Origin: Enterobacteria phage CHB7
Strand: one strand, 5' to 3'
DNA length: 64,000 nt
Sequence record: MK562504.1
Below the pieces are notes generated by a model. It worked only from the letters and a program-made list of their open reading frames with translations, did not search any database and had not been told where the DNA came from. Positions within the stretch are counted from its first letter, which is position 1; each line of letters opens with the position of its first letter. A program made the translations under genes and the position numbers. Below, one piece after another: positions 60,141-61,796 of this stretch.

Positions 60141-60219
60141 TGGTACTCCATATCGGATTCGAACCGATACATAACACAGATTTTAAGTCTGGCCTCTCTG
60201 CCAATTGGAGTAATGGAGC
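60141..60219 (-). tRNA. tRNA with anticodon UAA (Leu by anticodon), short variable region
   Basis: Perfect anticodon stem CCAGA/TCTGG with loop CTTAAAA; T-loop TTCGAAT; CCA. Lacks the long variable arm expected for bacterial tRNA-Leu. Confidence 0.5.
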
Positions 60220-60221
60220 AT

Positions 60222-60296
60222 TGGCGGGGGATGTTGGAATTGAACCAACTTCTTCGATTTCAAAGACCGAGGTTTTAACCTTGTAAACTAATCCCC
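60222..60296 (-). tRNA. tRNA-Gln (UUG), tentative
   Basis: Anticodon loop CTTTGAA, T-loop TTCAATT, CCA; acceptor stem has one mismatch. Confidence 0.5.
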
Positions 60297-60305
60297 TTTA
60301 AATCT

Positions 60306-60863
60306 TTACTTTCTTAGTGGATGAATAAAGAATGCCAACATAATTCTTTCCCTTGAAAATGCTCTTTCTTCTGGGACAACACTTTTAAGTTTCCAACCAA
60401 CATAAATTCTCCAGTAAAATTGTTTACCAAAGATTTTAATTGACGGGATAAAAGCGAATAAACCCCAAGCATTACTGTTCCACATCAGGAGATAACCTGT
60501 CTGATTATCTTCAGGGTTAGAACTTACGTTGATATTACCTTTCCACTTAGTAACATCTTTTACATCTCTTCCTAATACATGGTAAGAGAAGTTATAAGCT
60601 TTGTTTCTCCAGAGCCATCCAACTCTCTGCATATAAACACCGAGCTTACCAATCTTTCGAATCTTAGCCCATCGTTCAACGTGACCTTTGTCACCATCAA
60701 TTGGGTTGTCATAAGTTTCCATCCATCTGAATCCAAAAGGTAAGTGACCTTTCTTCTCACTGTAGAATGGAACCACAAATGGTGCTAAGATTACTGCTAA
60801 GATTGCTGCAAATGGCTCTAGCAAAGCTAGGAAAATCCATGAAGCATACTTCAAATATCTCAT
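60306..60863 (-). CDS. membrane protein inside the tRNA array
   Basis: Hydrophobic N-terminal helices (ASWIFLALLEPFAAILAVILAPFVVPF); track ORF extends to 60920 into tRNA-Arg, so start set at the internal Met (MRYLKY). Confidence 0.4.
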   Translation of the reverse strand: MRYLKYASWIFLALLEPFAAILAVILAPFVVPFYSEKKGHLPFGFRWMETYDNPIDGDKGHVERWAKIRKIGKLGVYMQRVGWLWRNKAYNFSYHVLGRDVKDVTKWKGNINVSSNPEDNQTGYLLMWNSNAWGLFAFIPSIKIFGKQFYWRIYVGWKLKSVVPEERAFSRERIMLAFFIHPLRK

Positions 60864-60883
60864 TTTAAATAGCCTCTTTAAAT

Positions 60884-60960
60884 TGGTGCAGAATAAGGGA
60901 TTCGAACCCCTAACAAACAACTTCGTAGGTTGCTGCTCTATCCGTTTGAACTAATTCTGC
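60884..60960 (-). tRNA. tRNA-Arg (ACG)
   Basis: Clean cloverleaf: acceptor GCAGAAT/ATTCTGC, D-stem GTTC/GAGC, anticodon loop CTACGAA, T-loop TTCGAAT, CCA. Confidence 0.75.
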
Positions 60961-61138
60961 AATGTTCTTTTGAGATTCCTGTCTAGCTCTCTTCTTATCT
61001 CTTCTGAGAAAGCGTCTACGATGGTCTGTACGCCATTTGTAGTAATCTTCCTCACCAGCGTGAGAAGCACAGCAACCACAACTTGCAATTTCAACTTTAC
61101 CGTGTCTACCATAAGGCTTCATAGGAATCTCCTAAAAT

Positions 61139-61216
61139 TGGTGTTCCAAGACGGATTCGAACCGTCACTAATACAAGGTTTGAGCTTGCATCCTCTGCCA
61201 ATTGGGATACTGGAAC
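61139..61216 (-). tRNA. tRNA with anticodon CAA (Leu by anticodon), short variable region
   Basis: Anticodon loop CTCAAAC, T-loop TTCGAAT, CCA. Confidence 0.5.
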
Positions 61217-61218
61217 AT

Positions 61219-61293
61219 TGGTACTCGCTGAAGGACTTGAACCTTCTTCACCAACTTGTAAGGATGGGGCTTTACCATATAAACTAAGCGAGT
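61219..61293 (-). tRNA. tRNA-Val (UAC), tentative
   Basis: Anticodon loop CTTACAA with one T-T mismatch in the stem; T-loop TTCAAGT; CCA. Confidence 0.5.
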
Positions 61294-61389
61294 ATGAAAA
61301 GAGGTCTGAAGTTGTGCCGCTAACTCAACTCCGTGGAATTTGTTACGGTCTTCAGTTGACTCAAGCGGTCTTTCACTCGACCTCTGAAA
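61294..61389 (-). ncRNA. structured tRNA-like element without canonical T-loop
   Basis: About 95-nt spacer whose ends are perfectly complementary (AGAGGTC...GACCTCT) with internal hairpins (CCGT...ACGG), but no GTTCRA T-loop. Confidence 0.3.
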
Positions 61390-61466
61390 TGGTGCTGCTC
61401 ACAGGACTCGAACCTGCATTTCCATCCTTACAAGGGATGTGTAATAGCCAATTATACGAAAGCAGC
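61390..61466 (-). tRNA. tRNA-Thr (UGU)
   Basis: Anticodon stem CATCC/GGATG, loop CTTGTAA; T-loop TTCGAGT; CCA. Confidence 0.65.
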
Positions 61467-61472
61467 ATTGTT

Positions 61473-61547
61473 TGGAGCATCCAGAGGGAATCGAACCCTC
61501 AACCTCAGTTTGGAAGACTGTAATTTTCCCGTTTAAACTATGGATGC
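61473..61547 (-). tRNA. tRNA-Gly (UCC)
   Basis: Anticodon loop CTTCCAA, T-loop TTCGATT, CCA. Confidence 0.6.
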
Positions 61548-61553
61548 ACTAAT

Positions 61554-61629
61554 TGGTGGAGAAGCAGGGAATTGAACCCTGTACTTAAGTTTGCAAAACT
61601 TATGTTTTAACCATGTAAACTACATCCCC
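61554..61629 (-). tRNA. tRNA-Ala (UGC)
   Basis: Anticodon loop TTTGCAA; G3-U70 wobble in the acceptor stem; T-loop TTCAATT; CCA. Confidence 0.65.
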
Positions 61630-61635
61630 AATGTT

Positions 61636-61711
61636 TGGTACAGGTGGAGGGAATTGAACCCATCGTCTTACTGATTAAGAGTCAGCCGCATAACCATTTT
61701 GCTACACCTGC
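61636..61711 (-). tRNA. tRNA-Lys (CUU)
   Basis: Anticodon loop CTCTTAA, T-loop TTCAATT, CCA. Confidence 0.6.
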
Positions 61712-61718
61712 ATTAATT

Positions 61719-61796
61719 TGGTAGGAGACAAGGGATTCGAACCCTCAAACACCAACTTCTAAGGATGGTAGGTTTACCAATTACCGTCAATCTCCC
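61719..61796 (-). tRNA. tRNA with anticodon UAG (Leu by anticodon), short variable region
   Basis: Anticodon loop CTTAGAA in an arm nearly identical to the Val(UAC) tRNA; T-loop TTCGAAT; CCA. Confidence 0.5.

Follow-up and report, generated by a model that had tools for sequence, protein, structure and literature searches.

Textbooks treat bacterial tRNA-Leu as a class II tRNA. What, then, are the three tRNA genes with the leucine anticodons UAA, CAA and UAG, none of them with a long variable arm, that are found in a tRNA gene cluster of Enterobacteria phage CHB7? The DNA analysed here is a stretch of 64,000 nucleotides (nt) from sequence record MK562504.1, and 'the window' below means the whole of it. 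A preliminary description, made from the letters alone, had folded the three tRNAs by hand and considered that they might be true short leucine tRNAs, tRNAs of another identity or decoys for host anticodon nucleases. Based on the evidence collected below, we estimate at about 0.75 the probability that they are three genuine and functional phage tRNA-Leu genes of the short-arm type (type I), the products of which would be charged by the host's leucyl-tRNA synthetase (LeuRS).

All three genes were detected by ARAGORN with the same outer coordinates and anticodons as in the hand folds (Table 1), and alignment to the Rfam tRNA model (RF00005; gathering score 29 bits) placed the same Leu triplets at positions 34–36. 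Thus, neither program moved an anticodon or changed an isotype, and the hand folds were confirmed; the sizes first proposed for the tRNAs (77–79 nt) and their variable regions (5–8 nt) were essentially right, the present values being 78–79 and 5–7 nt. Segment parsing gave the variable regions GUUAUGU in Leu(UAA), AUUAGU in Leu(CAA) and UGUUU in Leu(UAG). With 7, 6 and 5 nt, respectively, none of them reaches the size of a class II arm (>10 nt), and all three tRNAs are type I in the sense of having a Leu anticodon together with a short unpaired variable loop. In contrast, all five distinct tRNA-Leu sequences of Escherichia coli K-12, which were fetched and scanned in the same study, were 85–87 nt long and had a variable stem-loop of 13–15 nt. 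Leu(UAA) has G1:U72, A73, a 3-bp D stem with the 11-nt D loop CAAUUGGCAGA and the anticodon loop CUUAAAA. Leu(CAA) has G1-C72, A73, the D arm UCC-CAAUUGGCAGA-GGA, as in Leu(UAA), and the anticodon loop CUCAAAC; these two genes are paralogues, with a body identity of 0.73. Leu(UAG) has G1:U72, U7:G66, A73 and the anticodon loop CUUAGAA. The G1:U72 pair of Leu(UAA) and Leu(UAG) is also present in E. coli leuZ.

We then considered the fold of the whole group, using a set of 23 distinct short tRNAs with Leu anticodons, taken from phages both related to this one and unrelated. In the acceptor stem all 161 cells were paired, with three to five pair types at each position. RNAalifold, run on 16 diverse members of the set, returned a cloverleaf with only about six columns between the anticodon and T stems, and compensatory double changes were observed at 18 of the 20 consensus pairs; such substitutions occurred in all four stems and across genera. 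Under the consensus structure 93.1% of cells were paired, compared with 59.8% in column shuffles (0 of 500 reached the observed value) and 38–51% when the pairing partners were slid. Since the structure was predicted independently by RNAalifold and pairing was far above that of shuffles, the short-arm cloverleaf is not a folding artefact. Minimum free energy folding of single tRNAs often gave no cloverleaf, which is normal for tRNAs, and was not used as evidence.

Leucine identity was examined through a D-arm signature, defined as a 3-bp stem and an 11-nt loop N-A-A-Y-Y-G-G-N-A-N-A, in which G18G19 are loop positions 6–7, with positions 13 and 22 unpaired. This signature was present in all 5 E. 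coli tRNA-Leu and in none of 25 other E. coli tRNAs (20 isotypes covered in all), and in 16 of 24 phage tRNAs with a Leu anticodon compared with 2 of 254 other phage tRNAs. It is exact in Leu(UAA) and Leu(CAA); Leu(UAG) deviates from it, and the homologues of the latter in phage BF23 and in Seunavirus match it. The three phage anticodons are those of E. coli leuZ (UAA), leuX (CAA) and leuW (UAG), the remaining host genes, leuQPVT, having CAG, and the E. coli tRNAs share with the phage ones A73, U8, A15 with U48, a T loop of the form UUCRAnU and a 3-bp D stem with an 11-nt loop R/C-A-A-U-Y-G-G-N-A-G-A. All three phage tRNAs keep A73, U8, A14, A15, U48 (the variable region ends in U) and the T loop UUCGAAU, and they retain A20a as well as G18G19, positioned as they are in E. 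coli tRNA-Leu. Their sequences are compatible with the A15:U48 Levitt pair and with the elbow pairs G18:U55, G19:C56 and U54:A58. A73 and U48 were invariant in all 148 distinct members of the type I Leu family among the matches listed in the scans described below. The elements reported to be used by E. coli LeuRS are A73, U8:A14, A15:U48, G18G19, A20a and the U54:A58 T loop, all of which the phage tRNAs retain, and neither the anticodon nor the long arm is reported to be needed (PMC9976931; PMC6614811); the long arm, although typical of tRNA-Leu, is no identity element for this enzyme (PMC9976931).

Published isotype scores (tRNAscan-SE 2.0) for Shigella phage Sf14 agree with a leucine assignment. 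Leu was the top isotype for Leu_CAA (49.1 versus 36.1 for Lys), Leu_TAA (60.2 versus 54.2 for the next isotype) and Leu_TAG (67.4 versus 65.7 for the next). The Leu(CAA) gene of Sf14 has the same sequence as that of the window and its Leu(UAA) gene differs at one nucleotide (C32U); Leu_TAG of Sf14 is a different allele from that of the window.

The meaning of the codons was assessed by aligning window open reading frames (ORFs) to those of Erwinia phage phiEa21-4 (15,210 codons, 52% amino-acid identity). The fractions of codons aligned to Leu were 52% for CUA, 59% for UUA and 59% for UUG, against 56% for CUC, 57% for CUU and 60% for CUG, the last three being codons for which the phage encodes no matching anticodon. 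The 97 CUA codons were aligned to Leu, Ile and Val in 52%, 13% and 6% of cases, respectively, and no sign of recoding was seen in the 15,210 aligned codons. An earlier version of this comparison, restricted to T5 (nrdA, nrdB, nrdD and thyA), was underpowered, with 11 CUA codons of which three each corresponded to Leu, Val and Ile, and was replaced by the one given here. Together, UUA, UUG and CUA make up 46% of the Leu codons in the genes aligned to phiEa21-4, and the phage is AT-rich; for UUA and CUA, relative synonymous codon usage in Sf14 exceeds that of its host (Sf14 tRNA study).

Function has been recorded for one homologue. According to the BF23 record AJ604530, a 77-nt tRNA-Leu(UAG) of this phage (tRNA-L1) became an 'effective amber suppressor' when its anticodon was swapped to CUA, and BF23 tRNA-L1 thus works in E. 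coli translation. It is about 84% identical to the window Leu(UAG) and shares with it the U30:U40 mismatch and the 5-nt variable loop; on the other hand, the window allele carries one more nucleotide in its D loop, and one pair of its D stem is mismatched. In phage T5 the same syntenic slot is occupied by a class II Leu(UAG), also named tRNA-L1, of 85 nt, and T4 has a class II Leu(UAA) of 87 nt. Since T5 and T4 carry class II forms and BF23 a short one, short and long tRNA-Leu are interchangeable coliphage alleles.

The Leu genes are also well conserved. The 5.1 kb around them are 96–98% identical to Escherichia phages EcSzw-2, SUSP2 and phiSUSP1, and identity is 80–90% to some 300 further phages of the Felix O1-like group (Ounavirinae), of Escherichia, Salmonella, Klebsiella, Erwinia, Shigella and Citrobacter, by which similarity the locus is the tRNA cluster of a Suspvirus-like coliphage of the Ounavirinae. 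The Leu(UAA) sequence recurred without a single difference (100% identity) in 23 related loci, and 215 of 263 phage records matched it at 99% identity or more. This near-perfect identity, compared with 80–90% for the surrounding 5.1 kb in most relatives, shows that the Leu genes are under strong purifying selection. Two genes, for Leu(UAA) and Leu(UAG), that are 100% identical to the Felix O1-like ones were also observed in GU169904.1 (Staphylococcus phage SA1, 147 kb), a record that is probably chimeric or contaminated.

Of the identities first considered, that of true short leucine tRNAs is therefore the one upheld, by the D arm, A73 and U48, the Sf14 isotype scores, conservation and covariation, the BF23 suppressor and the meaning of the codons. 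The Leu genes would be co-transcribed with the remainder of the minus-strand cluster, and their transcripts would be processed by enzymes of the host. Host LeuRS would leucylate the short tRNAs independently of the anticodon, via A73 and the D/T elbow; the UAA and CAA tRNAs would then read UUA and UUG, and the UAG tRNA would read CUA and its wobble partners. Arm loss may be a neutral streamlining that LeuRS tolerates or, more speculatively, may protect the tRNAs from host factors by which class II arms are recognised.

It should be noted that several observations weigh against this interpretation. First, E. coli LeuRS has been reported to charge only type II tRNA-Leu and to be inactive on the type I tRNA-Leu of Streptomyces coelicolor (PMC6614811). 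In the latter tRNA, position 48 is C and A73 is no identity element (PMC6614811); given that the phage tRNAs have U48, the failure of the enzyme on the S. coelicolor tRNA may not carry over to them. Second, the BF23 record is silent on the amino acid inserted by the suppressor. Third, the window Leu(UAG) is irregular: its D arm is degenerate (ACG-GUAAUUGGUAAA-CCU, with a 12-nt loop and a C11:C24 mismatch), its anticodon stem contains the U30:U40 mismatch and its Rfam score, 40 bits, is the lowest in the cluster. Finally, a search for the nearest isotype by segment identity to 30 distinct E. coli tRNAs (anticodon masked, variable region removed, 20 isotypes covered) did not single out Leu. This test was dropped in favour of the D-arm signature because the canonical class II tRNA-Leu of T5 was also not placed clearly first with Leu.

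To place the three tRNAs in a wider context, we surveyed the distribution of short tRNA-Leu. In about 23 Ounavirinae loci, every tRNA-Leu was 77–79 nt long, whereas tRNA-Ser was 89–93 nt (87–93 nt with the window included) and tRNA-Tyr 88 nt. Leu is thus the only shortened isotype in the group, tRNA-Ser and tRNA-Tyr having retained their long arms. Loss of the arm in Leu alone fits the rules of the synthetases, since the Ser and Tyr enzymes use the arm and E. coli LeuRS is reported not to need it. In Erwinia phage phiEa21-4, Leu(CAA), Leu(AAG) and Leu(UAA) are all short, and short tRNA-Leu were also found in Seunavirus, Aeromonas phage Akh-2, Xanthomonas phage X1 (one, beside a long form) and Lactobacillus phage LpeD (three). 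Further members were collected by a pattern scan for the D-loop motif with type I spacing, a pattern that also permitted the Phe anticodon GAA. In IMG/VR at least 120 stretches were found; among the matches listed, all 80 had a Leu anticodon (77 distinct sequences) and none had GAA. Bacterial genomes also yielded at least 120 stretches, mostly from Actinomycetota and mostly solitary genes, the anticodons among the matches listed being UAA (46), CAA (17), UAG (10), CAG (4) and GAG (1). At least 78 Leu-anticodon tRNAs of bacterial genomes, mostly from Actinomycetota, combined the D loop CAAUUGGCAGA with A73 and U48, and at least 71 distinct tRNAs from mostly actinobacterial genomes had these features together with a variable loop of 5 nt. 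Actinomycetota with type I Leu tRNAs included Nocardia, Mycobacterium, Rhodococcus, Gordonia, Corynebacterium, Arthrobacter and others, and the gene was mostly the sole tRNA of its 8-kb locus.

Type I tRNA-Leu has been documented in mitochondria and, among bacteria, as tRNA-Leu(CAA) of S. coelicolor (PMC6614811). As judged from these matches, actinobacterial type I tRNA-Leu is far more widespread than that single literature case, and the phage short Leu tRNAs are akin in sequence to the bacterial ones, through either common descent or convergence. The S. coelicolor tRNA resembles those of the window in being of bacterial type with a 5-nt variable loop; however, the LeuRS of S. coelicolor has an adapted leucine-specific domain, whereas the phage tRNAs must use the enterobacterial enzyme, and actinobacterial type I genes are mostly solitary, whereas those of the window belong to a phage cluster. 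Human mitochondrial tRNA-Leu(UUR) is likewise type I and owes its identity mainly to A73 and A14, with no need of a long arm (PMC9976931); it differs in having its own mitochondrial LeuRS and a floppy, modification-dependent fold, and has no sequence kinship to the phage tRNAs. A literature search for descriptions of short-arm phage tRNA-Leu found none, and the Sf14 tRNA study nowhere mentions the variable arm. In the annotation of some homologues the genes are labelled 'tRNA-Pseudo-TAG' or 'tRNA-OTHER'.

The Leu(UAG) slot deserves separate consideration. Two unrelated alleles occupy it in this phage group, 'type A' (GGGAGAU..., as in the window) and 'type B' (GCACCUA..., as in phages mistaenkt and Sf14), the latter with a textbook Leu D arm. 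Homologues of the window gene are about 84% identical in BF23 and other T5-like phages and about 81% identical in Seunavirus; they have the exact Leu-type D arm, the same U30:U40 mismatch and a compensatory G29-C41 pair. Rfam places the acceptor register of the window gene 1 nt off that of ARAGORN. The ARAGORN register is favoured by two changes observed in relatives, a compensatory one at 4:69 and U72C. In the window, a gene for a free-standing PD-(D/E)XK protein, which is probably a homing endonuclease by its domain match (Table 1), sits between tRNA-Leu(UAG) and tRNA-Ser(UGA). A longer version of this ORF, starting from 62543, runs into tRNA-Ser, and a real start there is improbable. In phage mistaenkt an HNH endonuclease gene is found at the site of the PD-(D/E)XK gene, together with the type B Leu(UAG). 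In T4, the inheritance of tRNA regions is known to be driven by homing endonucleases (PMC2330249); the PD-(D/E)XK gene is a candidate for driving the replacement of Leu(UAG) alleles at this slot.

The same gene shares its anticodon arm with a neighbour. The preliminary description had noted a nearly identical arm in Val(UAC) and Leu(UAG), and this likeness is real: in CCAUC-CUUA[C/G]AA-GUUGG, 16 of 17 positions are identical and position 36 alone differs, which is the highest arm identity among the 210 tRNA pairs of the window (runner-up, 14 of 17). The recent duplication with anticodon switching that had been proposed to explain it could not be upheld. Outside the arm the two genes are 57% identical, which is background (mean 52%, standard deviation 8%; rank 52 of 210), so that the arm is all they have in common, and duplication of the whole Val gene to give Leu(UAG) was rejected on this value (body 0.57 versus 0.52 ± 0.08). 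Among relatives all four combinations of Val-arm and Leu-arm alleles occur, and the same arm is found in both genes at only two loci, the window included. Sequence comparison thus indicates that the likeness is one of arm-level mosaicism and not of recent gene duplication; the shared arm fits either patchwise recombination or old common ancestry of that arm. Identical anticodon stems between different tRNAs of one genome were found in 13 of 8,102 within-locus pairs, and given this occurrence stem identity alone is not decisive for arm exchange. A stronger sign of exchange is that the type A body carries two wholly different anticodon stems, CCAUC/GUUGG or UCUCG/CGAGA, which disagree at every one of the 10 stem positions although the molecule is otherwise the same. 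Similar arms with the U30:U40 mismatch are present in Leu(UAG) of BF23 and Seunavirus and also in the Val tRNA of phiEa21-4. A second instance of two different tRNAs sharing an arm within a single phage was observed in Cronobacter phage EspYZU15, in which tRNA-Gly(UCC) and tRNA-Leu(UAG) (2959–3035 and 5001–5077 of the locus) have the common stem CCGUC/GUCGG, including the U30:U40 mismatch.

Why the arm should have been lost is a question to which a different answer can be given, namely that both the arm loss and the altered anticodon loops were selected for escape from tRNA-targeting nucleases or toxins, the tRNAs being nuclease-proof replacements or decoys. The model for such a role is tRNA-Tyr, the variable loop of which is cleaved by Retron-Eco7 and Septu, and for which alone there is a precedent. 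T5 tRNA-Tyr, which escapes Retron-Eco7 (compare Septu), is likewise a phage copy of a class II tRNA with a variable region unlike that of the host; however, it has kept its long arm, and its escape from a defined nuclease has been shown experimentally, nothing comparable being known for tRNA-Leu. In favour of such selection, the toxins AbiEii and MenT3 appear to have a preference for class II tRNAs, and very different alleles form a mosaic at the Leu(UAG) slot, beside homing endonuclease genes. G1:U72 is enriched in viral members of the type I Leu family (35 of 77, compared with 10 of 71 from bacterial genomes, among the matches listed). The phage anticodon loops are also unlike those of the host isoacceptors at positions 32, 37 and 38: they have C32, the UAG tRNA has A37 and A38 in place of G37 and U38, and the CAA tRNA has C38. 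By the known rules for TrmD, MiaA and TrmL, 1-methylguanosine at position 37 is probably absent and, in the CAA tRNA, the modifications that depend on N6-isopentenyladenosine at this position are probably absent as well. On the other hand, we know of no nuclease that cuts the variable arm of tRNA-Leu, and the only tRNA-Leu nuclease found, the Gifsy-1 terminase, cleaves the CAG isoacceptor in its anticodon region. The same short form is common as solitary genes in Actinomycetota, where escape from phage defence is no obvious driver, and T5 and T4 do with long-arm tRNA-Leu. We consider selection for escape unlikely on balance, and it is with similar reserve that we would extend the tRNA-Tyr analogy to an adaptive counter-defence in which loss of the arm, the single structural handle that LeuRS can do without, hides tRNA-Leu from nucleases or nucleotidyltransferase toxins that select class II tRNAs. 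If such a counter-defence were real, the swapping of alleles by homing endonucleases at the Leu(UAG) slot would belong to an arms race, and enterobacterial LeuRS would have to charge a natural type I tRNA-Leu efficiently, against the published statement that it is specific for type II.

Much less probable is a different amino-acid identity, in which at least one of the tRNAs, most likely that with UAG, would be charged by a synthetase other than LeuRS and CUA or UUR codons would be miscoded or recoded. In the mitochondria of yeast and Ashbya there are indeed class I tRNAs that carry a UAG anticodon without being leucine tRNAs (PMC7609411), and the arm shared by the type A allele with tRNA-Val, the annotation labels quoted above and the reported rejection of a type I tRNA-Leu by E. 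coli LeuRS could all be taken in the same sense. However, the alignment of CUA codons is indistinguishable from that of CUU, CUG and CUC, so that the codons are read as Leu. G36 removes the C36 required by valyl-tRNA synthetase, G3-C70 excludes Ala (there is no G3:U70), and the anticodon loop has 7 nt, not 8. In addition, conservation extends to A73, U48 and the Leu-type D arm, and isotype models put Leu first for the Sf14 tRNAs. That the short arm is a deletion in decaying, non-functional genes carried along in the cluster is barely credible, because the low Rfam scores (40–47.5 bits, the lowest among the class I-sized tRNAs of the cluster), the mismatched D and anticodon stems of the window UAG allele and the presence of a real tRNA remnant nearby are outweighed by near-perfect sequence conservation over hundreds of phages, compensatory changes in every stem, invariant A73 and U48, an encoded CCA and the suppressor function of the BF23 homologue.

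The three genes are part of a larger cluster (Table 1). All 21 tRNA genes of the window lie on the minus strand and encode the 3' CCA, and the tRNA-His gene encodes G-1 as well; the homologous clusters of relatives contain 24–26 tRNAs. The part of the window that corresponds to the site of gp79 in Erwinia phage phiEa21-4, a tRNA nucleotidyltransferase (CCA-adding enzyme), contains no gene for such an enzyme, and no synthetase gene was present among the window ORFs examined.

Table 1. Coordinates of the short tRNA-Leu genes and other features of the tRNA cluster in the window
Feature	Position	Strand	Details
tRNA-Leu(UAA)	60141..60219	-	79 nt including CCA; variable region 7 nt (ARAGORN; Rfam 47.5 bits)
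tRNA-Leu(CAA)	61139..61216	-	78 nt including CCA; variable region 6 nt (ARAGORN; Rfam 44.0 bits)
tRNA-Leu(UAG), 'type A' allele	61719..61796	-	78 nt including CCA; variable region 5 nt (ARAGORN; Rfam 40.0 bits)
tRNA-Val(UAC)	61219..61293	-	anticodon arm CCAUC CUUACAA GUUGG (ARAGORN)
tRNA-Ser(GCU)	59019..59111	-	93 nt; variable arm 21 nt; internal class II control (ARAGORN)
tRNA-Ser(UGA)	62389..62475	-	87 nt; variable arm 16 nt; second class II control (ARAGORN)
Free-standing PD-(D/E)XK endonuclease gene	62025..62366	-	113 aa; Pfam PF11645, E=3e-17; phrog_5018
tRNA gene cluster	58936..63982	-	21 tRNAs within the window, 3 Leu among them (ARAGORN and arm parsing)

Several other elements of the cluster, all on the minus strand, were also observed. 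The 96-nt spacer between tRNA-Val and tRNA-Thr (61294–61389) forms a long stable hairpin (−31.4 kcal/mol; z = −3.7 compared with shuffles). The tRNA clusters of T5, BF23 and T4 include 'stable RNAs of unknown function', and the spacer hairpin may by analogy be a comparable small RNA, or else a processing element. In the gap between tRNA-Lys(UUU) and tRNA-Asp, positions 63681–63734 were matched in part by the tRNA model (31.3 bits; model positions 9–63) and gave no ARAGORN call; this is probably a tRNA remnant. A conserved Cys- and Arg-rich ORF of 70 amino acids (60910–61122; phrog_10765, E=3e-50) and tRNA-Arg(ACG) (60884–60960) overlap over the 5' ~50 nt of the latter, and the same overlap is present in the annotation of phage mistaenkt. 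Two conserved protein genes with no assigned function also lie within the cluster, at 59114–59848 (DUF7217, E=7e-84) and 60306–60866 (DUF7338, E=9e-62); relatives of the DUF7338 protein with 58–62% identity occur also on contigs of about 120–180 kb.

The phage tRNA-Leu are thus members of a known but rarely discussed short-arm class. Recent primary literature places type I tRNA-Leu only in mitochondria and Streptomyces and regards E. coli LeuRS as specific for type II, yet in coliphages and Salmonella phages a family of type I tRNA-Leu is fixed in hundreds of genomes, and it occurs in many other phage groups as well. The presence of short Leu and long Ser and Tyr tRNAs in the same clusters amounts to a natural experiment that mirrors the identity rules of the synthetases, and the phage Leu tRNAs are ready substrates for studying how E. 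coli LeuRS treats tRNA-Leu without the long arm. The short arm also explains why annotation pipelines label such genes 'pseudo' or 'other', and calls for caution in taking a short arm as evidence of recoding. Finally, if loss of the arm should be a counter-defence, the tRNA-based arms race between phages and their hosts would extend to leucine tRNAs.

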